A stretch of DNA of 64,000 nucleotides. Origin: Burkholderiales bacterium (lineage in GTDB: Bacteria > Pseudomonadota > Gammaproteobacteria > Burkholderiales > SG8-41). How positions within the stretch are numbered: the first letter of the stretch is position 1; each line of letters opens with the position of its first letter. This document shows, one piece after another, positions 25,533-61,449 of the stretch. The DNA lies in the NCBI GenBank assembly GCA_035259205.1, contig DATFWO010000099.1, forward strand, positions 812 to 64,811, written 5' to 3'. The position numbers and the translations under genes are program-made. The notes under the pieces are model-generated. The model was not told the DNA's origin and did not search any database. It saw only the letters and a list, made by a program, of their open reading frames with translations.

Positions 25533-25573
25533 CGGCCAAAGGGGAAGGAAGGCCCCGCGCAGCTACGATCTAC

Positions 25574-25609
25574 CAGTCATGCTCTATCAGTCACGCATCA
25601 CCAGCCACG
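25574..25609. repeat. 14-bp-period array, core CAGTCACG (3 units)
   Basis: cagtcatg at 25574, cagtcacg at 25588, cagccacg at 25602. Exact 14 bp spacing. Spacer between the biotin carrier and carboxyltransferase genes. Confidence 0.75.
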
Positions 25610-25622
25610 CTTCATCAAAGAC

Positions 25623-27158
25623 ATGCCATTCGAGACGCTGATAGCTGAGTACGAAAAGCGCCGGGCCAAAGCGCTCGGGATGGGCGGACCGGAAAAGCTC
25701 GCCAAGAGAAAGAAAGCGGGCGTGCTCAACGCGCGCGAGCGGGTCGAGCGCCTGTTTGATCGAGGCACGTTTCTCGAGTCGGGGCTGTTCGGCGCCTCCG
25801 GGGTGTACCCGGACGAAGCCGACGAGACGCTGACGGACGGCAAGATCGCGGGCTACGGCAAGATCGGCGGGCGCGACGTGGCGGCAGTGGTGAACGACTT
25901 CACGGTGAAGGGCGCTTCCACCAGCGCGACCAACAGCAAGAAGGTCGCCCACATGAAGCGCACCGCGACCGAGCGCGGCATACCGCTCGTGATCATCGGG
26001 GAATCCACTGGCGCGCGGCTGCCCGACGCCATGGGCTCGCGCGGCATGGGACAGTTGCTCGGCAACGACCCCACGCAATTTCGTCGCATGCGCGAGACAC
26101 CTCTTGCAACTGCCGTGCTGGGTCCGTCATTCGGCTCTTCGGCGTGGCTCGCCTGCCTCGCCGATTTCGCGGTCATGCACAAGGGCGCCACGATGGCGGT
26201 CTCGAGCCCGCGGCTGATCGAGATGGCGCTGAACGAGAAGGTGAATTTCGAGGAGCTGGGCGGGTGGCGGCTGCACGCGGAGACGACCGGCCTGGTGGAC
26301 CAGGTGGTGGACAAGGAAGAGGAGGTGTTCGAGGCCATCCGGCGCTTCTTGTCCTACATGCCGGGCCACAACCAGGAAGCGCCGCCGGATGCGTCGGTGC
26401 CCGAGGGCTCGGGCGCGGAGATGGCCGCCGTCTTCGGCGTGCTGCCGGAGAGCCGCACGCAGGTCTACGACATGAAGCGCATCATCCGCGCGGTCGTGGA
26501 CCGGGACACGTTCTTCGAGCTGAAGCCCCGCTTCGGCAAGAGCGCGGTGACGGCGCTCGCCCGGCTGGGCGGCAAGAGCGTGGGGGTCGTCGCCAACAAC
26601 CCGCTGCATCGGGGCGGCGCGCTCGATGCCGATGCGTGCCGCAAGATAACGGACTTTCTCGTCCTGTGCGATTCCTTCAACGTGCCGATCGTCCTGCTCG
26701 TGGACACGCCGGGCTTCCAAATCGGCACCGAGGCCGAAAAGAGCGGCGCGCCCGGAAAGATCATGAACTTCATGAACGCGATGACGTTGCTCACAGTGCC
26801 GCGGCTTTCCGTCATCATCCGCAAGAGCTACGGGCGCGCCTACGTCTGCATGGGCGGCGGCCGGCATTCGGACGACGTGGCGGCGTGGCCCACGGCGGAG
26901 GTAAGCTTCATGAGTCCGGATTTCGCGACGCGCATCGTGCACGGCGTAAAGCCGGGCGATCCCGCCTTCCAGGAGAAACTCGCGGAGATCGAGCAGGAAA
27001 GCGATGTCTGGGGACTGGCCTCGGTGTTCGCGGCGCAGGCAGTGATCAAACCCGAAGAGACCCGCGACTATCTCATACGCATGCTTGAAGTTTACCGGCT
27101 GCGAATGACGCGCGGCGTCGGGCAGCATCTGATGCGCTGCTGGCCTACCTCTTACTGA
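25623..27158 (+). CDS. Acyl-CoA carboxylase carboxyltransferase subunit (PccB/AccD5-like)
   Basis: 511 aa carboxyl-transferase protein (GVLNARERVERL, NDFTVKGAS, LVDTPGF, RKSYGRAY). Roughly half the positions match the copy at 2739-4274 by eye. Confidence 0.9.
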   Translation: MPFETLIAEYEKRRAKALGMGGPEKLAKRKKAGVLNARERVERLFDRGTFLESGLFGASGVYPDEADETLTDGKIAGYGKIGGRDVAAVVNDFTVKGASTSATNSKKVAHMKRTATERGIPLVIIGESTGARLPDAMGSRGMGQLLGNDPTQFRRMRETPLATAVLGPSFGSSAWLACLADFAVMHKGATMAVSSPRLIEMALNEKVNFEELGGWRLHAETTGLVDQVVDKEEEVFEAIRRFLSYMPGHNQEAPPDASVPEGSGAEMAAVFGVLPESRTQVYDMKRIIRAVVDRDTFFELKPRFGKSAVTALARLGGKSVGVVANNPLHRGGALDADACRKITDFLVLCDSFNVPIVLLVDTPGFQIGTEAEKSGAPGKIMNFMNAMTLLTVPRLSVIIRKSYGRAYVCMGGGRHSDDVAAWPTAEVSFMSPDFATRIVHGVKPGDPAFQEKLAEIEQESDVWGLASVFAAQAVIKPEETRDYLIRMLEVYRLRMTRGVGQHLMRCWPTSY

Positions 27159-27163
27159 AGAGC

Positions 27164-27295
27164 GTGATGAGTAATGGGTGATGAGTGATGGGCAAAATCG
27201 TAAGTTGAACTGTTGGCTTACTACCAGAAGAAACAATCTAGCGCGACCAAGCCCTCGCTAGAGGGCAGTTCTACTCATTACCCATCACCCATCAC
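27164..27295. repeat. Mirror heptamer arrays (GTGATGR x4 / complement x3) flanking a central hairpin
   Basis: gtgatga gtaatgg gtgatga gtgatgg at 27164-27191. Complementary ctcatta cccatca cccatca c at 27273-27295. Perfect hairpin gccctc-gcta-gagggc at 27251-27266. Confidence 0.8.
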
Positions 27296-28759: not shown

Positions 28760-29464
28760 ATGGACGGGCGTAAACTGATTTTGGAGGCCAGGAAGCAGGG
28801 ACGGTCGGCGCTCGATGAGCTAGCGGGCAAGCAATTGCTTGCGAGTTACGGCATTGCTGTGCCGAAATCCCTCGTAGTCCGCGATGCAGCGCAGGCGGCT
28901 TCGACGTGCGCGACCCTCAAGCCGCCGCTGGTGCTCAAGGTGATGTCGCCCGACATCCTCCACAAGAGCGACGTGGGCGGCGTCAGAGTCGGTCTGAACA
29001 GCGGCGAAGCGATCGTCGAGGCGATCAGGGAGATGATGGCCACGCCGCAGATCGGCAACGCGCGCATCGACGGCTTTCTGGTCGAGGAGATGGCGCCGGC
29101 GGGGCAGGAGATCGTCATCGGCGGCGTGCGCGATCCGCAATTCGGCCCGCTCGTCATGCTGGGGCTGGGCGGGCTGTTCGTCGAAGTTCTGGCGGATGTT
29201 GCATTCCGCATTTGCCCGATCACCGGGCTCGATGCCGAAGAGATGCTTGATGAGCTGAAGGGCGCTGCGCTGCTCGCCGGCGCGCGCGGGCGCAAGCCGG
29301 CGTCGCGTGCCGCCGTTTTGGATTCGCTGCTCAAGGTGGGTGGTGCGGGGGGCCTGCTGATGGGCTACGCGGACGACATCAAGGAGGCGGACATCAATCC
29401 GCTCGTCGTTTCGGAAACCGGCGCGATGGCGGTCGATGCGCGCTTTGTTTTAACCAAAAGGTGA
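28760..29464 (+). CDS. ADP-forming acyl-CoA synthetase, beta (ATP-grasp) subunit
   Basis: 234 aa ATP-grasp_5-type domain (KV.SPDILHKSDVGGV, ADINPL), as in NDP-forming acetyl-CoA synthetase beta subunits. Confidence 0.8.
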   Translation: MDGRKLILEARKQGRSALDELAGKQLLASYGIAVPKSLVVRDAAQAASTCATLKPPLVLKVMSPDILHKSDVGGVRVGLNSGEAIVEAIREMMATPQIGNARIDGFLVEEMAPAGQEIVIGGVRDPQFGPLVMLGLGGLFVEVLADVAFRICPITGLDAEEMLDELKGAALLAGARGRKPASRAAVLDSLLKVGGAGGLLMGYADDIKEADINPLVVSETGAMAVDARFVLTKR

Positions 29465-29579
29465 CGAGGTACGGGTGACGAAGATGCGGGTGACGAGATA
29501 CAGGTGACGAGATACGGCTGGCCCTGGTTGTAGGTCACCCTTATTCGTCACCCTTATTCGTCACCTTTATTCGGCACCT
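29461..29579. repeat. Mirror arrays: 4 x GTGACGA (14-15 bp period) and 4 x GTCACC (13 bp period)
   Basis: gtgacga at 29461, 29475, 29490 and 29504. gtcaccc/gtcaccc/gtcacct/ggcacct at 29534, 29547, 29560 and 29573. The first unit contains the upstream TGA stop. Confidence 0.85.
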
Positions 29580-29584
29580 CTTTG

Positions 29585-31069
29585 ATGAGCGAGAACGTAA
29601 TCGAGCGCTTCCGGCCGCTGTTCGAGCCGAAGACAGTGGCGGTCCTCGGCGCGTCGAGCCGCGGCGGGACGGTTTCCAACATCTTCATCCGCCGCATCCG
29701 TGAGTTCGGCTTCGAAGGAGCAATCTATCCGATACACCCGTCGGCCGAGAGCATAGACGGACTGCCGGCCTATCGCAGTCTCGCCGGCACGCCCGACGTC
29801 GTCGACTATGCGTTCATCGCGATTCCCGGTGGACAGATACCGTCCCTGCTCACGGAGGCGCGGGGACGCGTGCGATTCGCGCAGGTGATTTCCAGCGGAT
29901 TCGGCGAGGTCGACGAGGGCAGGCAGCTGCAGGACCAGTTGGTCGCGGCAGCGCGCGAGGGAGGCATGCGGCTGATCGGCCCCAACTGTCTGGGCCTCTA
30001 TTCGCATCGCGGCAAGGTCACCTTTACCGAGACCTGGCCGCAGGAGCTGGGCACGATAGGGGTCATTTCACAAAGCGGCGGGCTTGGCACGGACATCGTG
30101 CGCCGGGGAATCATCCGGGGCCTCAAGTACTCCGCCGTGGTGACTGTGGGCAATTGCGCTGACGTCGGGCCGAGCGAGCTGCTCGAGTACTATCTGGCCG
30201 ACGCGCAGACCCGCGTCGTCGGAATGTATATCGAATCGGCCGGTGACGGTCGGCGGCTGTTCGAGATGCTGCGCGCAGCGCAAGCGAAAAAACCGGTCGT
30301 GATCCTGAAGGGAGGACGCACGCGACTGGGCAAGATGGCCGCGGCCTCGCACACCGGCTCGCTTGCTGGCGATGATCGCGCGTGGGTCGCTCTGTCCCGG
30401 CAAACAGGGTGTGTCCTGGTGGAGACGCTGGATCAGTTCCTGGATGCGCTGCTCGCGTTCCAGACGCTCAAGCCGCGGCCGCAGCATCCCACGCGGGAGA
30501 CCGTGTTGTTCGGCAACGGCGGCGGGGCGAGCGTGCTGGCAACCGATACCTTTGCCCGCCTGCAGCTGGAGGTCGCGCCGTTCGCCGAACAGGCGCTGGA
30601 GGCGCTCGCTGCGCTCAAGCTGCCGCCCGGCAGCAGCATATCGAACCCGGTGGATACTCCGGTCAGCACGCTCCGCCACGAGGATGGGGCGGTCGCGGAA
30701 AAAATCCTCGAGGCGATCTACGGGGTTGGCCGCCCGCAGGCGCTGGTCATGCACCTCAATCTGTCCGCGTTCGTGGGCCGCACCCAGAGCGACGTCCTGG
30801 GCAACCTCATGGAGATCGCGCTGCGAGTGCAGGCGCGCTATCCCGGGCAGGCGCACTTCATGCTGGTGCTGCGCGCGGACGGCGAGCCGGCGCTGGAAGA
30901 GCGCAAGCGGCAGTTCCGCGCCCGGGCGACGGCGCTCGGGATACCCGTGTACGACGAGCTCGAGCACGCGGCCCGCGCGCTCGCGGCGCTGGCCTTTCAC
31001 GAGCGGTTCCTGCATTCGAGAGCATTGACCGTGACTCGTGACTCGACCCCGATTACGGAAGCTTGTTAA
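29585..31069 (+). CDS. ADP-forming acyl-CoA synthetase, alpha (CoA-binding/ligase) subunit
   Basis: CoA-binding N-terminus (VAVLGASSRGG), GPNCLG, and the phospho-histidine loop AASHTGSLAGDD. ATG at 29585 preferred over the TTG at 29582 in the ORF track. Confidence 0.85.
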   Translation: MSENVIERFRPLFEPKTVAVLGASSRGGTVSNIFIRRIREFGFEGAIYPIHPSAESIDGLPAYRSLAGTPDVVDYAFIAIPGGQIPSLLTEARGRVRFAQVISSGFGEVDEGRQLQDQLVAAAREGGMRLIGPNCLGLYSHRGKVTFTETWPQELGTIGVISQSGGLGTDIVRRGIIRGLKYSAVVTVGNCADVGPSELLEYYLADAQTRVVGMYIESAGDGRRLFEMLRAAQAKKPVVILKGGRTRLGKMAAASHTGSLAGDDRAWVALSRQTGCVLVETLDQFLDALLAFQTLKPRPQHPTRETVLFGNGGGASVLATDTFARLQLEVAPFAEQALEALAALKLPPGSSISNPVDTPVSTLRHEDGAVAEKILEAIYGVGRPQALVMHLNLSAFVGRTQSDVLGNLMEIALRVQARYPGQAHFMLVLRADGEPALEERKRQFRARATALGIPVYDELEHAARALAALAFHERFLHSRALTVTRDSTPITEAC

Positions 31070-31141
31070 GCTGCCGTTAAATCACGCCTCATCAGTCGCG
31101 CCTCGCCAGTCACGAACCATCAGTCACGCATCAGCAGTTAC
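31031..31141. repeat. GTGACTC x2 followed by 5-unit 14-bp-period CAGTCACG array
   Basis: gtgactc at 31031 and 31038 (inside the 3' end of the upstream CDS). aaatcacg, cagtcgcg, cagtcacg, cagtcacg and cagttac at 31079, 31093, 31107, 31121 and 31135. Confidence 0.8.
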
Positions 31142-31147
31142 TTTCCC

Positions 31148-32356
31148 ATGTACCAGTCCGATTTCAGAGCAGTTCACTATCCCTATCGCCTTTACAGCGG
31201 CAAGAACGCCCTCGACAAGCTGCCCGATGAAGTCGGCCGGCTCAAAGCGCGCCGCGCGTACATCGTTTGCGGCCGCACCGTATCGCGCAAGACACCGCTC
31301 ATTTCGCACATGCGGGAACTGCTGGGCACGGCTTGCGCTGGCGTGTTCGACGAAGTCGACAAGGAAACCACCCGTTCTTCCATGGTGCGCGCGACCGAGG
31401 CGGCGCGTGCGGCGCAGGCGGACCTGATCATAGGGGTGGGAGCAGGCAGCGTGATACAGGGCGCGCGTATCGTTGCGATCCTGCTCGCGGAAAAGAAACC
31501 GATCGAGGAGCTGATTACGAAGTATCCGGAGCAGGGTCCCGCCGTGAGCGCGCGGTTGATGGAGCGGAAGCTCCCCATCATCAATGTACTCACCGCGCCG
31601 ACAACGGCGCAGAATCGGGCGGGTTCGAGAATGAAAGACGACGAAACCGCCCGCGGCATGGAGTTCTTCGACCCGAAGACGCGGCCCGCGGCGATTTTCT
31701 GGGATGAGGACGCGCTGCTCACCGCGCCGGTATCGCTCATACGCTCGACGGCGAGCGCGGTTTATTGCCGCGCAGTGACGAATCTGGGCGGTGTTGCGAT
31801 CAATCCGCTGGTGGAGGGCGACCGGTTGCAGGCCTATCGGCTCACTTCCAGGGCGCTCGCGCGTATCGCCGCTCTCGCCGACGCCGGCCCGCGCTACGAC
31901 CTGTGCGCAGCGACCTTGCTTCAGAACCGGGAGAACGACGACGGCGGCGCCCAGTTCGAGCGTCTGTGGGCGGTGCGCGTGGCGTATGCGCTGTCAACTG
32001 CGCTCATCAGCATTTGCGGGCACGTCGGCCAGGGCGAGGCCTACAGTTCGTTGATGGGCACGGTAACGCGGCAGCTGGGGGCGCGGGATCCGGAGGCAAT
32101 GGCGCGGATCGCCCATGCGCTGGAAATCGCGAAGGAGGGAGAGCCCCCGGCGCAAATGCCGGCACGCGTTGCCGATAGCTTCGACGCGACTTTTCGCTCG
32201 ATCGGCATGCCGATTCGCCTTTCGCAGCTGGATATCGATCGCGCGGTTTTTCCGCGCCTGGTCGAGCACTCGCTCACCAACTTCAACGCGGACCCCAAGC
32301 GCGAGTTCCGCCGTGAGGGGGAGATGCTGACCGAGGTTCTCGAAGCGGCCTGGTAA
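31148..32356 (+). CDS. Iron-containing alcohol dehydrogenase family protein (maleylacetate-reductase-like)
   Basis: 402 aa Fe-ADH fold with IIGVGAGSVIQGAR in place of the GGGS loop. Last gene of the carboxylase operon. Confidence 0.7.
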   Translation: MYQSDFRAVHYPYRLYSGKNALDKLPDEVGRLKARRAYIVCGRTVSRKTPLISHMRELLGTACAGVFDEVDKETTRSSMVRATEAARAAQADLIIGVGAGSVIQGARIVAILLAEKKPIEELITKYPEQGPAVSARLMERKLPIINVLTAPTTAQNRAGSRMKDDETARGMEFFDPKTRPAAIFWDEDALLTAPVSLIRSTASAVYCRAVTNLGGVAINPLVEGDRLQAYRLTSRALARIAALADAGPRYDLCAATLLQNRENDDGGAQFERLWAVRVAYALSTALISICGHVGQGEAYSSLMGTVTRQLGARDPEAMARIAHALEIAKEGEPPAQMPARVADSFDATFRSIGMPIRLSQLDIDRAVFPRLVEHSLTNFNADPKREFRREGEMLTEVLEAAW

Positions 32357-39203: not shown

Positions 39204-40970
39204 ATGACCGAGCCCCGCGACCCCTACGCACGCACTGAAGTGCGCGACGGCATGCGCATCACCTGGCACCAGCCGATCGCTATGGACGACGGACTGGTGC
39301 TTCGCGCGGATATTTACCGGCCCGTCGGAGACCTGCGTTGTCCGGTCATCCTGACCTACGGCATCTACGCCAAGGGGCTCGCGTACCAGGACGGCTACCC
39401 GTTGCAGTGGGAGAAGATGGTCGCGGACTATCCCGAGATCCTGAAGGGGTCGAGCAACAAGTACCAGAATTGGGAAACCACCGACCCCGAATGCTGGGTG
39501 CCGCACGGTTACGCCGTCGTGCGCGTGGACTCGCGCGGCGCGGGCTGGTCGCCCGGCTTCATGGATCCGGGCTGTCCGCGGGAGACGGAGGACCTCTACC
39601 AGTGCATCGAGTGGGCGGGCACACAACCGTGGAGCAACGGCAAGGTGGGCATGCTCGGGATCTCGTACTACGCGAGCAACCAGTGGCGCGTGGCGGGCAT
39701 GCATCCGCCGCACCTCGCCGCCATCATCCCGTGGGAAGGGCAGAACGACCGCTATCGCGATTCGGGCTACCACGGGGGCATCCTGAGCCAGTTCCAGGAG
39801 CGCTGGGCCAAGCACCAGGTGGCTAACATCCAGTACGGCCGGGGCGACAGGGCGAAGAAGAATCCGAACACCGGAGAGTCCGTCGCCGGTCCCGTTACGT
39901 TGACTGATGAGGAACTGGCGAGGAACCGGGTGGACGCCTTCGAGGAGCTGAAGAAACACCCTCTCGACGACGAATGGCACCGTTCGCGCTCGGCTGATCT
40001 CTCCAAGGTGCGCACACCGTTGCTCACCTGCGCCAACTGGGGTGGCCAGGGCATCCATCCGCGCGGCAACTTCAACGGTTACACGGAGACCCCGGACGAC
40101 ACGCCGAAGTGGCTGGAAGCCCACGGCGACTCGCACTGGTCGCTCTTCTCGAGCGGCTACGGCGTCGACCTGCAGAAGCGCTTCTTCGACCACTTCCTCA
40201 AAGGAATCGCGAACGGCTGGGACAAGCAGCCTCGCGTTCAGCTCAATATCCGGCAGCCGGGTGAAAAGTTCGTACGCCGCTACGAGAACGAGTGGCCGCT
40301 CGCACGCACGCAATGGACCAGGTTCTACCTCGACCCCGCGAATCAGAGCCTCAGCACGAAACCTGTGGCGCAGGCGGGAAGCGTCGAGTACGACGCCTTA
40401 GGGGGCGGCGTAACGTTCCGTATGCCGCCTCGGGACAAGGAGACGGAAATCACCGGGCCGATGGCGGCGAAGCTCTTCATCGCATCCTCGACCGCGGACG
40501 CCGATCTCTTTCTCATCGTCCGCGTCTTCGACCCCTCGGGCAAGGAGCTTACGTTCATGGGCTCCACCGATCCGAACACGCCCATCGCCAACGGCTGGCT
40601 GCGCGCCTCGCACCGCCGGCTCGACCCGAAGAGAAGCCGGCCCTACCGCCCCTGGCATCCGCACGACCGCGTAGAGCCGATGACGCCCGGCCAAATCTAC
40701 GAATGCGATGTCGAGATCGTGACGAGCTGCATCGTCGTTCCGGCCGGGTGGCAGGTCGCCCTTACCGTCCGCGGGAAGGACTACGAATACGAAGGCGAGC
40801 TCTCGGAGTTCGGGAAAAAGTTCCACTATGGCACTCGCGGCACCGGCGGCATGACCCACAACGATCCCGACAGCCGCCCCGCCGCGCTCTTCGGCGGGCG
40901 CGTCACGCTGCACGCGGGCGGTGAGCGTGAGTCGTATCTGCTGCTGCCGATCATTCCCTCACGGGAATAG
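39204..40970 (+). CDS. CocE/NonD family hydrolase (S15 X-Pro dipeptidyl-peptidase fold)
   Basis: 588 aa. D.RG.G.S.G and the GISYYASNQW nucleophile region, plus a C-terminal jelly-roll domain typical of CocE/NonD. Confidence 0.85.
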   Translation: MTEPRDPYARTEVRDGMRITWHQPIAMDDGLVLRADIYRPVGDLRCPVILTYGIYAKGLAYQDGYPLQWEKMVADYPEILKGSSNKYQNWETTDPECWVPHGYAVVRVDSRGAGWSPGFMDPGCPRETEDLYQCIEWAGTQPWSNGKVGMLGISYYASNQWRVAGMHPPHLAAIIPWEGQNDRYRDSGYHGGILSQFQERWAKHQVANIQYGRGDRAKKNPNTGESVAGPVTLTDEELARNRVDAFEELKKHPLDDEWHRSRSADLSKVRTPLLTCANWGGQGIHPRGNFNGYTETPDDTPKWLEAHGDSHWSLFSSGYGVDLQKRFFDHFLKGIANGWDKQPRVQLNIRQPGEKFVRRYENEWPLARTQWTRFYLDPANQSLSTKPVAQAGSVEYDALGGGVTFRMPPRDKETEITGPMAAKLFIASSTADADLFLIVRVFDPSGKELTFMGSTDPNTPIANGWLRASHRRLDPKRSRPYRPWHPHDRVEPMTPGQIYECDVEIVTSCIVVPAGWQVALTVRGKDYEYEGELSEFGKKFHYGTRGTGGMTHNDPDSRPAALFGGRVTLHAGGERESYLLLPIIPSRE

Positions 40971-41020
40971 CGTCCCAGGTACATCGTCCCAGGTAGGGCG
41001 TCCCAGATGCAGCGTCTTAG
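40971..41020. repeat. 14-bp-period array, core CGTCCCAG (4 units)
   Basis: cgtcccag at 40971, 40985 and 40999, and cgtcttag at 41013. Begins 1 nt after the CocE/NonD stop codon. Confidence 0.8.
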
Positions 41021-43016: not shown

Positions 43017-43088
43017 GGGGCGCGATCCTCCGTGCTGTCGGGCGATTGTGCCGGGCTGAACGGCTGATGGCTAGCATCGAGCTCCGCA

Positions 43089-43126
43089 GTGACGAGCTGC
43101 GCGGTGACGAGTTTCACGGTGACGAG
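43089..43126. repeat. 15-bp-period array, core GTGACGAG (3 units)
   Basis: gtgacgag at 43089, 43104 and 43119, in the spacer between the cupin and thiolase genes. Confidence 0.75.
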
Positions 43127-43300
43127 CTGAGCGGTAGCGCGTCGAGGGGCGGGGTAGTGCCCCGTTTACGTGTCTGCCTGAGGGTCAGATCACGTTCCTC
43201 AAGCGAAGCGTGTTGCGAGGATGTCAGACCGTCATGTCAAGACCTGAACCCCGTCAACGCCTGCGCCTGACCGCTGACGCCCGACCCCTGACGGCCTCGT

Positions 43301-49225: not shown

Positions 49226-49690
49226 TCACGCGACCTTTGAGCCCTCTGAAGACTGTCGCGGGACCATCAGGACGGCCGCGATGACGAGAACGACGAGCAC
49301 GGGCATGACGTATTCGAGAAATACCTGCGCCACCCCGCCCGCCGTTCCCTTCTCCTGAAACATGCTGGCGCTCACGAGCCACAGCATGCTGTAGTACGAG
49401 GAAAGCGCGGCCAGAAACGAGTCGGTCGTCATGGTGGTCATGCGGAGGACACGAATGACGTAAAGCAACAGATAAATCGACGAAGCCAGTAGCACGGCGG
49501 CACGCCAGTACTTGAAATTGAAAACCACTGCCGCGCATGCGACCACGCCGCAAAGAGCCGCAATCTGCACCGAGGCGAGGTAATTGGGGTAGTACAGAAA
49601 GGCGGCGCACAGTATGAACATCAACCATGTAGCAACCGCCAGTGCTCCCGGTACGGTGGCGAGAGGGTGTTTTTGAGTGTATTCGGGCAT
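49226..49690 (-). CDS. Hypothetical integral membrane protein
   Basis: Start trimmed to MPEYTQKHP (gggagaaac SD). Four or five hydrophobic helices. No family recognised. Confidence 0.55.
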   Translation of the reverse strand: MPEYTQKHPLATVPGALAVATWLMFILCAAFLYYPNYLASVQIAALCGVVACAAVVFNFKYWRAAVLLASSIYLLLYVIRVLRMTTMTTDSFLAALSSYYSMLWLVSASMFQEKGTAGGVAQVFLEYVMPVLVVLVIAAVLMVPRQSSEGSKVA

Positions 49691-49705: not shown

Positions 49706-49758
49706 GTAACTGACTCTGATGAATGTGACTGTCTCATCAGTCACGCCGCACCAGTCAC
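49706..49758. repeat. GTGACTG / CAGTCAC palindromic units
   Basis: gtaactg at 49706 and gtgactg at 49725. cagtcac at 49738 and 49752. 49725-49744 is a perfect 7-bp stem with a 6-nt loop. The last unit overlaps the stop of the hydrolase gene. Confidence 0.75.
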
Positions 49759-50639
49759 TTCTTTTGAATCCTTGATCGCGGGTCGCGCGGCCGCCAGCGT
49801 CCGGAGTCCACCAGGGTCAGGAACTCGTCGGTGATCTGATTGAACAGGCCGGGTTCCTCGATGTTCACGACGTGACCGGTGGCCGCCACCACCGTCAGGC
49901 GAGCCGCGGGACAGGTGCGCTTGATGAACAGACCGGGATCGAGGGAGCTTTCGTCCTCGTCCCCGACGATCACGTGGGTCGGCACTTTCATGCGCGCAAG
50001 CTGACGCGCGAAGCTGTAGAGCACCGGGCGGCGCATCTGTACGCCACGCAGGGTATTTGCCTGGCCGCGTGGCGAATGCTCGGCGAATCGCATCAGGAAC
50101 TCCCGGAAGCCGCGCGGATCCTTGTTGTCGAGCTGTATGCGGTTGGGAGCGTTCTTGTATCCCTTGAGCGCCCAGGCCAGACCTTCGTTCTCGAAACGGC
50201 GTGCCGAAGCTGCGCTGGACTTGATGAACGCGGCCCGCCTGCCGGGATCCGAGCCGGCGCCGGCGCCGACCGACGTAAGAGAAAGCGCCCGCCGCGGGTA
50301 GCGCAGGCCGAACTGGAGCGTGGCGTAAGCACCCATCGAGCAGCCGATAATATGGGCTCTCGCGATTCCCAGATGCCGCATCACGCTGGCGATGTCATCC
50401 GCGGCCCCCGTATAGGAATACCTGGACGCCGAGGCGGGAATCTCGGAAGGAGGGTAGCCGCGGGCGTTGTATGCGATGCAGCGGTAGCGCCGGCTGAAAT
50501 AGCGCATCTGCGCCTCCCAGCTGCGGAAATCGCCCGAAAATTCGTGCACGAACACAATCGCCGTGCCGCGCCCCGCTTCCTCGTAGTAGAGGCGCACTCC
50601 GTTCGAATCGGCGTATGGCACTGTTCCTCCATCAGTCAC
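49755..50639 (-). CDS. Alpha/beta hydrolase, paralog 1 of second tandem pair
   Basis: 294 aa. HEF...RSW and the GCSMGAY nucleophile elbow. GTG start overlaps the stop of the upstream paralog (GTGA). Confidence 0.8.
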   Translation of the reverse strand: MTDGGTVPYADSNGVRLYYEEAGRGTAIVFVHEFSGDFRSWEAQMRYFSRRYRCIAYNARGYPPSEIPASASRYSYTGAADDIASVMRHLGIARAHIIGCSMGAYATLQFGLRYPRRALSLTSVGAGAGSDPGRRAAFIKSSAASARRFENEGLAWALKGYKNAPNRIQLDNKDPRGFREFLMRFAEHSPRGQANTLRGVQMRRPVLYSFARQLARMKVPTHVIVGDEDESSLDPGLFIKRTCPAARLTVVAATGHVVNIEEPGLFNQITDEFLTLVDSGRWRPRDPRSRIQKK

Positions 50640-51517
50640 TTCGTTCGAGCCATGGTGGATGGGTTGTAGGAGCGCGGATCGCGCGGGCGCCAGCGGCCCG
50701 AGTCCACCAGCGCGAGGAAATCATCGGTAATGCGGTTGAAGAAATCAGGCTCTTCGATGTTCACCGCGTGACCGGTACCCGGCACTACCGTGAGCCTTGC
50801 GGCAGGGCAGGTGCGCTTGATGAATATCCCCGGTTCCAGGCAGTTGTTGTCTTCGTCGCCCGTTATGATGTGCGTGGGCACTTTCATGCGCGCCAGACCG
50901 CGCTCCAGGCTGTAGATCGTCGGCCGGCGCGCCTGCACGCCGCGCAGCGTATTCGCGCAGCCCAGTGCCGGATGCTCCGCGAACTGCGCGCAGAATTCCC
51001 TGAACGCCCGCGGATCCTTGTTCTGCAGCTGCACCCGGGCCGGCCCGATCTGATAGACCTTGATGGCTTCGGGCGTGTCCAGTTCATCGAATCGGCGCGC
51101 CATTACCTCGGTATCCCGCAGAAACTGCCGGCGCTTGTCCGGGTCGGAGCCGTAGCCTGCGCCGATGACGGTGAGCGAGCTGGCCATGCGCGCATGGCGC
51201 AATCCGAAGTGCAGCGTCGCGTACCCTCCCATCGAGCAGCCTATGATGTGCGCCTTGCGGACGCCTGACTGGCGCATGACCGCCGCAATGTCGTCCGTGG
51301 CGATCGCCTGCGAATAGGCGGAGACCCGCTTTGGCACGTCCGACGGCGGGTAGCCCCGCGCGTTGAAGGCGATGCAGCGGTAGCGCCGGCTGAAATGGCG
51401 CAGCTGCGCCTCCCAGCTTCGAAGATCGTCGGCGAACTCGTGAACGAACACAATGCTTGTTCCACGGCCCGCTTCCTCGTAATAGAGCTTCACTCCATTG
51501 GACGTCGCGTACGGCAC
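50636..51517 (-). CDS. Alpha/beta hydrolase, paralog 2 of second tandem pair
   Basis: 293 aa. Long identical runs with 49755-50639 (LYYEEAGRGT, SRRYRCIA, IIGCSMG, KRTCPAARLTVV, LVDSGRWRPRDPRS). GTG start after gaggaggag. Confidence 0.8.
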   Translation of the reverse strand: MPYATSNGVKLYYEEAGRGTSIVFVHEFADDLRSWEAQLRHFSRRYRCIAFNARGYPPSDVPKRVSAYSQAIATDDIAAVMRQSGVRKAHIIGCSMGGYATLHFGLRHARMASSLTVIGAGYGSDPDKRRQFLRDTEVMARRFDELDTPEAIKVYQIGPARVQLQNKDPRAFREFCAQFAEHPALGCANTLRGVQARRPTIYSLERGLARMKVPTHIITGDEDNNCLEPGIFIKRTCPAARLTVVPGTGHAVNIEEPDFFNRITDDFLALVDSGRWRPRDPRSYNPSTMARTK

Positions 51518-51536
51518 TTCGCTCCTCCTCGTGAGG

Positions 51537-51680
51537 CGTGACTACTAAAACGTGACTGATACAGCGTGACTGATGAATCGTGACTGTTAATGCGTGGTCT
51601 TCTGGGGGCGCTCTTTCAGATACGTTACACCAGTCACGCCGTTTCAGTCACGTGGCACCAGTCACGCATCAACAGTCACG
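51537..51680. repeat. Mirror-symmetric array: 5 x CGTGACTG then 5 x CAGTCACG, exact 14-bp period
   Basis: Direct units at 51537, 51551, 51565, 51579 and 51593 (degenerate). Inverted units at 51617 (degenerate), 51631, 51645, 51659 and 51673. The 16-nt centre is 51601-51616. The 6-nt inter-core segments are not complementary between arms. Confidence 0.9.
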
Positions 51681-51687
51681 CACCATC

Positions 51688-52608
51688 TCACAGGGTTGGC
51701 TCGCGGCGTGCGAGCTCGGCCTCGTGGGAGATGCGGATTCCGATCAGCACCACGATCCCTCCCGCGATCTCGATGGCGCCCAGGGTTTCACCGAGCAACA
51801 CCCAGGCGAGCGCCGCTGCCGTCACGGGCTGCAGCAACAGTCCTATCGAAGAAAAGGTCGCGGGCAGGTGCGCCATGGCGTGGGCGATGAGGCTTTGTCC
51901 CGCGACCTGGGAGATCAGCGCCAGCCCGAAGAGCTTCACCCAGCCCATGGCCGTCACCGGCAGGATCTGTTCGCCCGAAAGAAGAGCAACCGGCAGGAGA
52001 GCCACGGCGGTGACGAGGCTGCTCCACGCCATGATGCTGGAAGTGGCGGCGCGGCTGCGCAAGCGCGTTACCGTGAGCTGGTATGCGGCGTAAAACATCG
52101 CCGTCACCACGCCCAGGCAGTCTCCGACTAGTGCTTTGCCGGAAAGGCGGAAATCACCGCCAAGCAGCGCAGACGTCCCTCCGAGCGCCGCGGCGAGGCC
52201 GGTGAGGAACAGGCCTCCGGGGCGCCGCCCGTACAGCATCCATACCGCCAGCGTGACGAAGATAGGCGCGATGTTTGCCAGCAGCGTCGCGTTCGCGATA
52301 CTCGTGAGCACGATAGACCAGTGCCACACGGCAAGATCGCCCGCGAAGAACAGTCCAGCCGCGATCATCAGCGGTCGCTCGCGCACGAAGCTCTCACGGT
52401 GATCGCCGCGCCGGCCGATCACTGCCCACGTCCACAGCAAAGGCAGCGCCAGGGTCACGCGCCAGAACCCCGTCGCCACCGGTCCGGCCTCGCTTACCCT
52501 GACGAAGAGCGCGGAAGTCGCGATCGCGACCGCCCCTGCAAAGAGAGCGAGCAGCGCCGCGGTCCGGGCGCGCTCGCCGCCGCCGGATGGCGATTGGGTC
52601 TTCACCAT
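51688..52608 (-). CDS. DMT family transporter (EamA-like)
   Basis: 306 aa, ten hydrophobic segments arranged as two EamA-type halves. Confidence 0.8.
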   Translation of the reverse strand: MVKTQSPSGGGERARTAALLALFAGAVAIATSALFVRVSEAGPVATGFWRVTLALPLLWTWAVIGRRGDHRESFVRERPLMIAAGLFFAGDLAVWHWSIVLTSIANATLLANIAPIFVTLAVWMLYGRRPGGLFLTGLAAALGGTSALLGGDFRLSGKALVGDCLGVVTAMFYAAYQLTVTRLRSRAATSSIMAWSSLVTAVALLPVALLSGEQILPVTAMGWVKLFGLALISQVAGQSLIAHAMAHLPATFSSIGLLLQPVTAAALAWVLLGETLGAIEIAGGIVVLIGIRISHEAELARREPTL

Positions 52609-52618
52609 GGCGATAGGA

Positions 52619-52716
52619 CGCGACTGGTGAAGCGTGACTGGTACGACGTGACTGATATAACGTGACTGCTGTGGCGTTCTTGTCGCACCCGTTGCCTGCT
52701 AAGCCCGATCAGTCAC
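52619..52716. repeat. 14-bp-period array, core CGTGACTG (4 units) plus one distal inverted unit
   Basis: cgcgactg at 52619, then cgtgactg at 52633, 52647 and 52661. Single cagtcac at 52710-52716. Confidence 0.85.
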
Positions 52717-52719
52717 TGT

Positions 52720-57537: not shown

Positions 57538-57577
57538 CGTCACCCGTTAGTCATCACTAAGTCATCACTCGTCACCC
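57538..57577. repeat. 10-11-bp-period array (GTCACC / GTCATCAC units)
   Basis: cgtcaccc at 57538, gtcatcac at 57550 and 57561, cgtcaccc at 57570. Spacer between the MBL hydrolase and Bug genes. Confidence 0.65.
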
Positions 57578-61368: not shown

Positions 61369-61398
61369 GGTGGTTCTCCGGAGAGCGGGGCAGATAAG

Positions 61399-61449
61399 GC
61401 GACTCAGGTGAAGCGGCTCAGACAGGGCGGCTCAGACAGCGAAGCCTGA
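61399..61449. repeat. 14-bp-period array, core GCGGCTCAG (4 units)
   Basis: gcgactcag at 61399, gcggctcag at 61413 and 61427, gaagcctga at 61441. Spacer between the Bug and MmgE/PrpD genes. Confidence 0.8.

Follow-up and report, generated by a model that had tools for sequence, protein, structure and literature searches.

Convergent arrays of a 14-nucleotide repeat unit fill the spacer between a transporter gene and a hydrolase gene in a Burkholderiales operon

The stretch of DNA analyzed here, called the window below, is 64,000 nucleotides long, and at positions 51537 to 51680 it holds an array of short repeats between two minus-strand genes, one for an EamA/DMT-family transporter and one for an alpha/beta hydrolase (Table 1). 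Orthologues of the transporter at syntenic loci carry the PF00892 EamA domain, and a protein identical to the transporter of the window was found on Logan contig L205. A paralogue of the hydrolase lies at 49755 to 50639 and overlaps the first hydrolase gene by 4 nt. Three arrays with the same core occur in this operon, and the window contains about ten arrays overall.

Table 1. Features of the repeat array at 51537 to 51680, its flanking genes and its sister arrays in the same operon
Feature	Position	Strand	Details
Upstream gene: EamA/DMT-family transporter, 306 aa	51688..52608	-	ORF; TGA stop 51688-51690
Outermost degenerate stop-side unit	51681..51694	-	sense CCTGTGAGATGGTG; holds EamA stop codon
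Stop-side arm (5' in mRNA)	51631..51680	-	four exact units, sense CGTGACTG + 6 nt
Innermost degenerate stop-side unit	51617..51624	-	plus strand CAGATACG
16-nt center	51601..51616	.	apical loop region of predicted rod
Innermost degenerate RBS-side unit	51593..51600	-	plus strand CGTGGTCT
RBS-side arm (3' in mRNA)	51537..51586	-	four units, sense CAGTCACG; outermost TAGTCACG; C/A-rich
Half-unit, SD and start	51515..51536	-	CGTGAGG 51530-51536; SD AGGAGGAG (reverse complement of 51522-51529); GTG 51515-51517
Downstream gene: alpha/beta hydrolase, 293 aa	50636..51517	-	ORF; homologues with PF12697/PF00561
Sister array, TctC/Bug to EamA spacer, same operon	52617..52717	-	one G-type and five C-type units
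Sister mini-array (2+2) after second hydrolase	49711..49759	-	first core AGTGACTG

A first-pass annotation of this DNA had described the array as five direct and five inverted units with an exact 14-nt period around a 16-nt center, and the unit coordinates, the period and the center all check out. On the plus strand the core CGTGACT is exact at 51537, 51551, 51565 and 51579, followed by A at the first of these positions and by G at the other three, and the inverted arm has exact copies of CAGTCACG at 51631, 51645, 51659 and 51673. The innermost unit of each arm is indeed degenerate (51593 and 51617). There is also a sixth, degenerate unit on the stop side, within which the EamA stop codon lies, and a half-unit adjoins the SD of the hydrolase gene. 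The array had been said to fill the whole spacer, in agreement with the spacing at both ends, where 7 nt separate the last core from the stop codon (which reads TCA on the plus strand) and 7 nt separate the SD from the first core. Units of the stop-side arm contain TGA at two offsets each. The 8-nt cores are complementary between the arms and the 6-nt segments between them are not, as had been noted; on direct reading about 2 to 3 of 7 spacer positions match. A two-unit pattern allowing up to two mismatches matched the window 16 times, whereas shuffled sequence is expected to give 0.01 matches, and in the self-similarity data of the window the period of 14 stands far above every other period. 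A chance origin of the array is excluded.

In the sister arrays of the operon, units occur in the TGA-bearing orientation (G-type) and in the opposite, G-poor orientation (C-type). The array ahead of the transporter gene has its G-type unit (AGTGACTG, the reverse complement of 52710 to 52717) 2 nt past a TAG stop codon, and the last of its C-type units ends 8 nt ahead of the EamA ATG, next to which no SD was evident by eye. The first core of the mini-array includes the TGA stop of the second hydrolase gene (49755 to 49757), and the array is followed by GGGAGA and the ATG (49688 to 49690) of a small ORF. Sister arrays of the same core with a 7-nt period also exist, one elsewhere in the window at 31026 to 31045 and others in the form of CAGTCACGAGTCAC arrays.

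Comparison with known classes of sequence gave no assignment. A search of the window against Rfam found no match at the gathering threshold and only noise at E ≤ 1 (mir-2319 with 23.5 bits against a threshold of 89; BTH_s19 with 14.7 against 153), and a tRNA/tmRNA scan found none. The promoter/terminator scan showed nothing at the array, and no T-run follows either arm, so an intrinsic terminator made of a GC-rich hairpin and a U-tract was rejected. The triple-core pattern had 0 matches in viral contigs, a plasmid blastn gave no match, a literature search on the core strings returned primer noise only, and the survey "Satellites in the prokaryote world" describes nothing comparable (PMC6749651). 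A plasmid iteron or centromere array (parC, omega heptads) does not agree with a chromosomal-type metabolic operon, about ten arrays in 64 kb and no plasmid match. A DNA-uptake sequence or Chi-like site was rejected because isolated core copies are not enriched, with only two isolated CGTGACT sites outside arrays in 64 kb. CRISPR arrays have repeats of roughly 23 to 50 nt, unique spacers of similar length and a single orientation; here, the repeat is 8 nt, the spacer is 6 nt and there are two inverted arms.

The array belongs to a family of fast-changing repeats in uncultured soil Burkholderiales/Betaproteobacteria. At least 120 metagenome contigs carry the pattern (CAGTCACG-N6)x3, and a census of the sequences examined gave 71 arrays against 1 after shuffling. 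Each repeat unit consists of two heptads, an invariant CGTGACT(G) and a degenerate copy of it (unit logo CAGTCAC / G-C-Y-N-Y-A-Y). Over approximately 290 units the cores are 95 to 100% invariant and the spacers are constrained in composition only (CYNYAY); 64 core positions are perfect, whereas the spacers share only about 30% identity. C-type arms are G-poor and carry a UCAY motif in every heptad. At many loci that are not orthologous, the core is the same while centers and spacers are unrelated. The exact 14-nt period emphasized in the first-pass annotation is specific to the CGTGACT core family but does not extend to other repeat families, which use periods of 7, 13 or 15 nt. The dominant period of the remaining arrays is 7 nt, some arrays consist of fully identical units of 13 to 15 nt, and the same genomes hold heptad arrays of many other sequences. 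The dominant unit differs by genome; the window, L204 and L012 have the 14-nt CGTGACTG, and L002 and L004 have the 15-nt GCGTGACGTGATACT. Perfect mirror symmetry, in turn, is not a rule of the family; arm sizes within pairs are uncorrelated (rho 0.06), and one array in two consists of a single arm. An apparent preference for four units may be an artefact, since three perfect cores were required and degenerate neighbors were then added.

Family-wide, arrays begin at, or include, the stop codon of the upstream gene. In paired elements the distance from the stop to the first core clusters at -5 and -9, which means that the stop is a TGA within the core, and in 22 of 28 single arms an ORF stop lies -19 to +14 nt from the first core. 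The second, C/A-rich arm of the paired form reaches the RBS or start of the next gene. The gene context was co-directional for 43 arrays, convergent for 12 and divergent for 1. On either strand, the TGA-bearing G-type arm comes first without exception for this core (26:0), at a ratio of about 110:9 for all families, where most of the 9 are false positives, and at 9:0 between convergent genes. As the polarity holds between convergent genes too, start-codon avoidance is insufficient alone as its cause. This polarity and the stop anchoring are the most pronounced regularities of the family; neither had been noted in the first-pass annotation, nor had the minus-strand location of the two flanking genes. 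Among same-core single arms with a determinable flanking gene, 20 of 26 are G-type in sense orientation and 6 of 26 are C-type. A crude test of partner-less arrays of all families gave 23 G-type and 16 C-type arms, which is no clear bias; the clearer result refers to the single-core family only, with stop codons located.

Rho prefers C-rich, G-poor, unstructured RNA of roughly 70 to 80 nt, and the C-type arm, with YC every 7 or 14 nt, could be read as a rut site that is masked by the G-rich arm transcribed before it. The G-poor composition and the UCAY in each heptad are consistent with such Rho control, as are the G-type arm always coming first and the majority of sense G-type arms among single arms. 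However, the same polarity is seen between convergent genes, where termination would be harmless, and unmasked C-type single arms lie directly ahead of start codons, for example at 25554 to 25630 of the window and in 6 of the 26 single arms mentioned above, so we regard Rho control as very improbable.

The RNA of the array folds with a predicted energy of -82.6 kcal/mol for the minus strand and -76.8 kcal/mol for the plus strand, with z of about -7 and 0 of 200 shuffles folding as well for both. Single-stranded DNA gave -38.5 kcal/mol (z of -5.4) and a diffuse ensemble. The predicted folds are segmented rods on both strands, with 8-bp helices separated by internal loops instead of a simple long hairpin, which is the shape that the first-pass annotation had anticipated. 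From these predictions, a rod probably forms in the transcript of this array. In the minimum free energy fold of the stop-to-start segment, 9 of 12 nt of the SD window and 3 of 3 nt of the stop codon are paired; across arrays, predicted SD pairing ranges from 0 to 11 of 12 nt.

In the family as a whole, sense folds had no advantage in stability over antisense folds (25 versus 18, p = 0.18), and the spacers showed no excess of G-U over A-C, results which argue against selection on the sense-strand RNA. Spacer complementarity between arms was the same in register (2.16 of 6) as out of register (2.18 of 6), and together with the independence of arm sizes this led us to reject co-evolution of the arms. 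An obligatory hairpin was rejected as well; 28 of 54 same-core arrays lack a partner arm and show no extra pairing either, so the hairpin cannot be an essential feature of the family.

Turnover of the arrays is very fast, and whole units are gained and lost. In the relative L204, which has a 97% identical protein, the orthologous array differs by a 28-nt, two-unit indel and by replaced spacers, with unchanged cores, and there, too, the first unit (CCTGACTG) supplies the TGA that serves as the stop codon. The center diverges by approximately 38% from that of L204, compared with only 7.8% at third codon positions. In L002, L004, L001 and L003, the orthologous spacer holds arrays of other unit types, and more distant relatives have no array at the same operon junction. 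Three roles had been offered for the array earlier: a protein-binding array, a segmented RNA or the product of a repeat-generating mechanism. A repeat-generating process is supported by the gain and loss of units in close relatives, by the arrays of identical units and by the many heptad arrays. There is no sign that pairing outside the cores, or the RNA of one strand, has been under selection.

The array could also be a selfish or neutral slippage-prone satellite without a cell function, which expands until constraint stops it on either side, survives only in the harmless orientation and forms a hairpin as a by-product. The confinement to one lineage and the absence from the same junction in more distant relatives are in line with this, and so are the fast turnover with variable copy number, the many unrelated heptad motifs on the same contigs, the independently varying arms without compensatory change or strand asymmetry, and the occupation of the entire stop-to-RBS spacer. 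The heptamer repeats of Xanthomonas are also not kept at the same genes between two related species (PMC4692102). On the other hand, neutral decay should strike cores and spacers alike, which is not what the perfect core positions and divergent spacers show; one core is present at hundreds of loci with no sign of whole-element copying; and the EamA-hydrolase junction has kept an array of one kind or another in the window, L204, L002, L004, L001 and L003 despite the change of unit type. A purely selfish satellite is a candidate explanation, but an unlikely one.

The invariant cores could instead be phased sites for a putative lineage-specific factor that reads the 8-nt core every 14 nt and marks cistron ends, either a protein on double-stranded DNA or a binder of single-stranded RNA that is itself a protein or an RNA, with the mirrored arm as a second set of sites or as a mask. 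Such a factor would account for core invariance beside spacers constrained only in composition, for one core at many non-orthologous loci with unrelated surroundings, for cores left intact where the spacers and center were replaced in a close relative, for single arms being as common as pairs, and for each genome having its own dominant unit family. But several cores and periods (7, 13, 14 and 15 nt) in one genome would require several factors or very loose specificity, lone core copies are not enriched, and a binder of double-stranded DNA alone leaves the strict polarity and the stop anchoring unaccounted for. We consider this factor, too, a candidate explanation but an unlikely one.

A mobile element such as a MITE, a foldback transposon or a REPIN-like element, with the arms as terminal inverted arrays of transposase-binding sites, is suggested by inverted arms with repeated subterminal sites, by dispersal over many loci and by an intergenic position biased to gene 3' ends, like that of REP elements. 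REP/BIME elements and REPINs are short, species-specific intergenic repeats at gene 3' ends or between operon genes, often in inverted hairpin pairs, and they can protect mRNA 3' ends or, near a stop codon, lower translation of the upstream gene. Their unit is an imperfect palindrome of 20 to 40 nt with a conserved 5' tetranucleotide that is recognized by a RAYT transposase. In contrast, the present units are tandem, 14 nt long and not individually palindromic, the 8-nt core not being self-complementary, and the copies share the core only. Different loci have unrelated centers and spacers, which shows that whole elements were not copied. Moreover, no target-site duplications were seen by eye at the ends inspected, half of the arrays are single-armed, phage and plasmid collections gave no matches, and arrays vary in situ, orthologous sites differing by whole units or unit type rather than by clean presence or absence of an element. 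The foldback (FB) transposons of Drosophila resemble the present array in architecture, with inverted arms of tandem short repeats, variable arm length and a non-repetitive center, but they are eukaryotic, kilobases long and mobilized by a transposase, and there are no signs of mobility here. A mobile element appears extremely improbable.

Template-switch mutagenesis at quasipalindromes, reportedly described by Ripley and by Lovett and colleagues, copies one arm of an imperfect repeat onto the other. It could create and homogenize complementary cores, but it is a mutational mechanism and not an element family, and it should copy the spacers too, which show no such complementarity in this family.

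The closest known system is found in Xanthomonas, whose GGGAATC heptamer repeats form convergent pairs. In X. campestris and X. axonopodis, these repeats form head-to-tail arrays of a 7-nt unit, most commonly of four units, which are 89 to 93% intergenic, lie near the end of the upstream ORF and mostly separate co-directional or convergent genes, few being found where genes diverge (Rehm et al. 2015, PMC4692102). Each genome has 70 to 75 convergent pairs, with one array per strand and the G-rich arm first, and a G-quadruplex explanation was proposed for them (PMC4692102). The heptad base, the convergent arms and the intergenic gene-end bias are shared with the present family. The present family differs in having a 14-nt unit of two heptads, in which an 8-nt core is invariant and the second heptad is loose, in having units that hold TGA and often supply the stop codon, which GGGAATC does not contain, and in its host lineage of uncultured soil Betaproteobacteria. 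The present core, CGTGACTG, has no G-run, so the quadruplex idea is not applicable to it. A second related system is that of the TAACTGA direct repeats of Beggiatoaceae and cyanobacteria, which are intergenic, occur in 2 to 6 copies, adjoin gene boundaries and have been proposed to act in translation (MacGregor 2015, PMC4679880). Cyanobacterial STRR heptamers are grouped with them as a similar system. In TAACTGA as in the present core, a C links two stop codons (TAA-C-TGA and TGA-C-TGA, respectively), an arrangement that places stops in several frames. TAACTGA repeats are, however, direct only, with a single inverted case, and most of them closely precede a start codon in forward orientation (PMC4679880), whereas the stop-bearing orientation of the present family abuts the upstream stop and about half of its arrays have an inverted partner arm.

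We tentatively favor, as plausible though far from secure, a reading in which the array is a stop-codon-anchored convergent tandem-repeat pair, that is, a foldback minisatellite made by slippage, whose rod joins stop and RBS in the mRNA. Replication slippage would create the arrays and drive their turnover in a lineage prone to heptad slippage, and the second arm would be made by inverted copying. Selection on the flanking genes would permit one orientation, with stop-rich units at gene ends and units free of start codons and SDs at gene starts. In the polycistronic mRNA, the fold model predicts a rod of 8- to 10-bp helices and internal loops, at about -83 kcal/mol, whose base would hold the EamA stop together with the hydrolase RBS. 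Such a rod may serve as an intercistronic structural element that blocks 3' exonucleases, the array may offer stop codons in all frames at the end of the cistron, and the hydrolase gene may be translationally coupled, in that its initiation relies on ribosomes that terminate at the rod base.

Slippage and a hairpin alone do not explain perfect 8-nt cores beside near-random spacers, a combination that indicates sequence-specific recognition or a homogenizing mechanism. Given the invariant cores beside free spacers, the strict stop anchoring and the unit families that differ by genome, it is conceivable, though quite unlikely, that an undescribed bacterial process is at work, either a sequence-specific factor acting on RNA or DNA that marks cistron ends or a stop-seeded mechanism that generates repeats and homogenizes their cores genome-wide. 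The same process would then also have given rise to the Xanthomonas-type convergent heptamer pairs.

If functional, the arrays would represent a widespread structuring of operon junctions in abundant soil bacteria, with consequences for insulation, coupling and mRNA stability. If they are selfish, they would be a clean natural case of flanking-gene selection filtering the orientation of self-expanding repeats. Three testable regularities are added by the present family, namely, stop-codon anchoring, the stop-bearing arm coming first, and invariant cores beside free spacers. Many bacterial genomes show an excess of heptamer-based arrays, and the only study to treat such arrays in detail, in Xanthomonas, invoked G-quadruplexes. 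The same architecture is found here without G-tracts, so the quadruplex idea is not the general answer; G-runs are present only in some sister families, such as GGGATAG in L001.

The mirrored 5+5 array between the EamA/DMT gene and an alpha/beta-hydrolase gene is clearly not a product of chance. With up to two mismatches allowed, its two-unit core pattern was counted 16 times across the window, where shuffles predict 0.01, and its period-14 self-similarity stands far above that at all other periods. The first-pass annotation had placed the units at a 14-nt spacing around a 16-nt centre; its coordinates match the sequence exactly, inspection showed the 14-nt period to be kept across the entire array, and the anatomy it described is correct and statistically secure. 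The minus strand is the coding strand of both flanking genes, so the arm next to the EamA stop codon reads CGTGACTG in sense (G-type, with TGA in its units) and the arm next to the hydrolase ribosome-binding site (RBS) reads CAGTCACG (C-type, rich in C and A). A sixth, degenerate unit (sense CCTGTGAGATGGTG) includes the EamA stop codon itself. The element is a stop-anchored tandem array with an inverted copy, built from heptads and filling the spacer from stop codon to RBS, and it is one of three same-core arrays in a single operon.

Features of the focal array, its flanking genes and other repeat arrays in the window
Feature	Coordinates	Strand	Details
CGTGACT units, focal array	51537, 51551, 51565, 51579 (starts)	plus	from sequence
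Degenerate unit CGTGGTCT, focal array	51593	plus	from sequence
Centre of focal array	51601-51616		16 nt; from sequence
Degenerate unit CAGATACG, focal array	51617	plus	from sequence
Inverted units CAGTCACG, focal array	51631, 51645, 51659, 51673	plus	from sequence
EamA/DMT gene	51688-52608	minus	TGA stop at 51688-51690
Alpha/beta-hydrolase gene	50636-51517	minus	GTG start 51515-51517
Hydrolase SD AGGAGGAG	rc of 51522-51529	minus	ahead of GTG start
TctC/Bug-EamA junction array	52617-52717		1 G-type unit 2 nt past TAG stop, then 5 C-type units, the last stopping 8 nt short of ATG
Hydrolase 2-small ORF junction array	49711-49759		2+2 units; TGA stop inside first core
GTGATGAG / CATCACC array	27164-27295		
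GGTGACGAG (14 nt) + GTCACCCTTATTC (13 nt) array	29460-29578		
CGTGACT (7 nt) + CAGTCACG (14 nt) array	31026-31148		
GGTGACGAG (15 nt) array	43078-43135		
Further arrays	25554, 40969, 46835, 57549, 61395		

The small ORF that follows the 2+2 array (49226-49690, minus strand; start MPEYTQKHPL...) has an SD-preceded ATG at 49688-49690 and appears hydrophobic. Its composition is apparently less GC-rich than that of the adjacent genes, which is why GC3-based gene calling missed it.

Over about 290 units of the family, the 8-nt core is 95 to 100% invariant, and the 6-nt spacer is constrained in composition only (C-Y-N-Y-A-Y, where position 13 is A in 80% and G is avoided), which makes the spacer a degenerate second heptad. 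Plain heptad repeats (CAGTCAC/GAGTCAC) make up some arrays. Of 167 arrays with other sequences on the contigs that carry the family, 84 had a period of 7 nt, the commonest value. The 14-nt period, stressed in the first-pass annotation, is not a family property, since 7-, 13- and 15-nt arrays coexist with it.

Unit number in the family is dynamic and polarity is fixed. In all 26 cases, the same-core partner arm lay upstream, never downstream, of the C-type arm. With all families counted, the partner of a G-type array was downstream in 57 cases and upstream in 6, and that of a C-type array was upstream in 53 and downstream in 3; the exceptions were mostly chance matches. The one convincing exception, at 2456-2562 of the array-bearing contig L117, has CACAAGT heptads first and CTTGTG heptads second, with an SD and an ATG between the arms, so that the second arm lies inside the start of an ORF. 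A palindrome is identical on both strands, and polarity is therefore a property of the element type and not of the strand. It was also kept between convergent genes (9:0); overall, 43 arrays lay between co-directional, 12 between convergent and 1 between divergent genes. The distance from stop codon to first core in paired elements clustered at -5 (n = 6) and -9 (n = 4), where either of the two TGAs in CG-TGA-C-TGA is the stop. The stop in the remaining paired elements was mostly no more than 20 nt from the first core, and the last core mostly ended 4 to 28 nt ahead of the next start codon. Single-arm arrays, viewed as G-type, had an ORF stop -19 to +14 nt from the first core in 22 of 28 cases (six at -5). 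The flank could be determined for 26 arrays, and in 20 of them the gene reading the array as G-type in sense adjoined it at a distance of no more than about 20 nt.

The segmented rod proposed in the first-pass annotation was obtained in predicted RNA folds of both strands of the focal array, with energies of -82.6 kcal/mol (minus strand, the sense strand) and -76.8 kcal/mol (plus strand) and z about -7 for both. The single-stranded DNA fold reached -38.5 kcal/mol with a diffuse ensemble. The minimum free energy of the 188-nt stop-to-start segment was -83.4 kcal/mol, and in that structure all 3 stop-codon nucleotides and 9 of 12 SD-window nucleotides were paired at the base of the predicted rod. 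A weak Rfam match at 51557-51646 to mir-2319, a microRNA precursor model, is noise produced by the long hairpin; it scored 23.5 bits (threshold, 89; E = 0.067).

Pairing is nevertheless clearly not the essential feature of the family. The lack of complementarity between 6-nt spacers, first described for the focal copy, extended across the family (2.16 of 6 positions in register versus 2.18 of 6 out of register), and spacer oppositions showed no excess of G-U (0.92) over A-C (0.90). Sense folds had no stability advantage over antisense folds (25 versus 18, p = 0.18). Perfect mirror symmetry did not generalize: arm sizes were uncorrelated (rho = 0.06) and the partner arm was absent in 28 of 54 arrays. 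These partner-less arrays paired no more with upstream than with downstream sequence (0.37 versus 0.37), and array centres at different loci were unrelated except for GCGTG...CACGC.

Comparison with relatives showed rapid turnover. The Logan contig L205 was identical to the window. In L204, a close relative whose hydrolase is 97% identical (third-position divergence, 7.8%), every shared core was intact, the stop-side arm was shorter by two units (28 nt), two RBS-side spacers were wholly different (CTGTAT/TATCAT, TTTTAG/CACCAT), two stop-side spacers were identical, and the centre differed by about 38%. Here too the TGA of the first unit served as the EamA stop, and the C terminus had changed (EPHT* instead of EPTL*). 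At 84 to 86% protein identity, the EamA-hydrolase spacer held other unit types, either a 15-nt family, GCGTGACGTGATACT, with arms of 7+5 or 7+4 units (L002, L004) or heptads such as GGGATGG / CCCTATC (L001, L003), and in three more distant relatives (L018, L023, L025) it was short and plain. Like the window, L005, L006, L010, L013 and L019 had a 4-nt overlap at the hydrolase-hydrolase junction; the paralogues were parted by 94- to 150-nt arrays in L001-L003 and L012, the last built on the window's own core. Units of 13 to 15 nt that are fully identical within some arrays indicate recent slippage. Together with these comparisons, they indicate that arrays change by whole units and outpace synonymous sites, with cores still perfect. 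Near-identical sequence directly upstream of both L002 hydrolase starts (TAGGAGATAA[A/G]A-ATG) suggests that an array-plus-gene unit was duplicated there. A RES-domain toxin/Xre-like antitoxin pair (PF08808; PF20432/PF09722) is inserted at L003 2574-3658, between peroxiredoxin and M20 peptidase genes, and is absent there in L001 and L002.

We propose that replication slippage would generate the arrays in a lineage with a tendency to heptad slippage, that the second arm would be made by inverted copying, and that polarity may be a residue of selection on the flanking genes. Each G-type unit carries TGA at two offsets and the 14-nt period shifts the frame, so an array can adjoin or enter a gene end and leave the ORF no longer than before. 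Units of the C-type are safe beside a start codon because they have few G in sense, and hence few ATG or GTG codons or SD-like runs. G-first would then be the sole order to satisfy both conditions whether the genes are co-directional, convergent or divergent. In the operon transcript, folding of the focal copy into a rod of about -83 kcal/mol is physically hard to avoid. Its most likely effects would be to protect the 3' end of the EamA cistron, terminate ribosomes in any frame, and couple hydrolase initiation to termination at the base of the rod; we favour this putative function, though tentatively.

Slippage and pairing leave perfect cores beside free spacers unexplained, and this pattern keeps two alternatives alive. 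It would be expected if a sequence-specific factor acted on the array, which we consider rather unlikely. It would also fit a purely selfish or neutral satellite with its cores kept uniform by some conversion process, a reading that seems to us doubtful to a like degree. Both are stronger than a mobile element, which is very improbable given that only the cores are common to copies, target duplications were not seen at the ends inspected by eye and arrays vary in situ, and than masking of a Rho site, which we likewise regard as very unlikely.

The host is an uncultured soil betaproteobacterium. A pattern scan found (CAGTCACG-N6)x3 in at least 120 metagenome contigs and in none of the viral contigs scanned, and a blastn search of plasmids gave no match. 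A census of at least three exact 6-mers at one fixed period of 7 to 16 nt counted 71 arrays in about 928 kb, versus 1 after shuffling. With the metagenome loci included in the data set, array density reached 0.125/kb for the window and 0.40/kb for the closest syntenic loci; it fell to 0.05/kb for beta MAGs at greater distance and to 0.02/kb for alpha-like outgroup loci.

Among described systems, the nearest counterpart is the set of GGGAATC heptamer repeats in Xanthomonas (Rehm et al. 2015, PMC4692102). Those are 89 to 93% intergenic, are found close to where the upstream ORF ends (mean, 28 nt), mostly between co-directional or convergent genes (70 to 75 convergent pairs per genome), most commonly have four units, and are not kept at the same genes between two species (PMC4692102). 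The family here differs in its 14-nt double heptad with an invariant core, in the stop codons inside its unit, and in its lack of G-tracts and hence of a G-quadruplex. The TAACTGA repeats of Beggiatoaceae share a "stop-C-stop" heptad and a gene-boundary position with it, but are direct repeats only, in forward orientation ahead of start codons (PMC4679880). The focal array was also compared with REP/REPIN, MITE, CRISPR, iteron, terminator and Rfam families and belongs to none of them. It is a case of convergent heptamer-type repeat arrays, which are known and poorly understood; what is new is the stop-bearing double-heptad unit. Stop-codon anchoring, absolute polarity and invariant cores beside free spacers are unexplained regularities that make the old heptamer-repeat question directly testable.

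Spacers with CAGTCACG arrays in the metagenome contigs L088, L121, L110 and L119 often hold other heptad runs too (e.g. GGATGAG, GTTCAAG/CTTGAAC, GGATTCA, CGTTAGT, AAGGCAA), so heptad arrays of varied sequence coexist in these genomes; GGATTCA is close to the Xanthomonas unit. Within the window, one plus-strand operon has an array at every junction, with differing cores (25554-25630, with core CAGTCACG, 27164-27295, 29460-29578 and 31026-31148). The first unit at 29460 contains the TGA of the upstream gene, and two heptads at 31029-31044 lie within the final codons of the upstream ORF, in the sole TGA-free frame. The arrays at 40969-41016, 57549-57569 and 61395-61440 have unrelated cores (CGTCCCAGGTA, AGTCATCACTA and GCGGCTCAGACAG), no obvious inverted partner and no clear fit to the GTGA-type rule. 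The 15-nt GGTGACGAG array shares a 284-nt spacer, flanked by minus-strand genes on both sides, with a CCTGACGCCCGACC array (43260-43293) at a distance of about 125 nt, and the long centre between them holds a GC-rich hairpin-like stretch, GGGGCGGGGTAGTGCCCCG.
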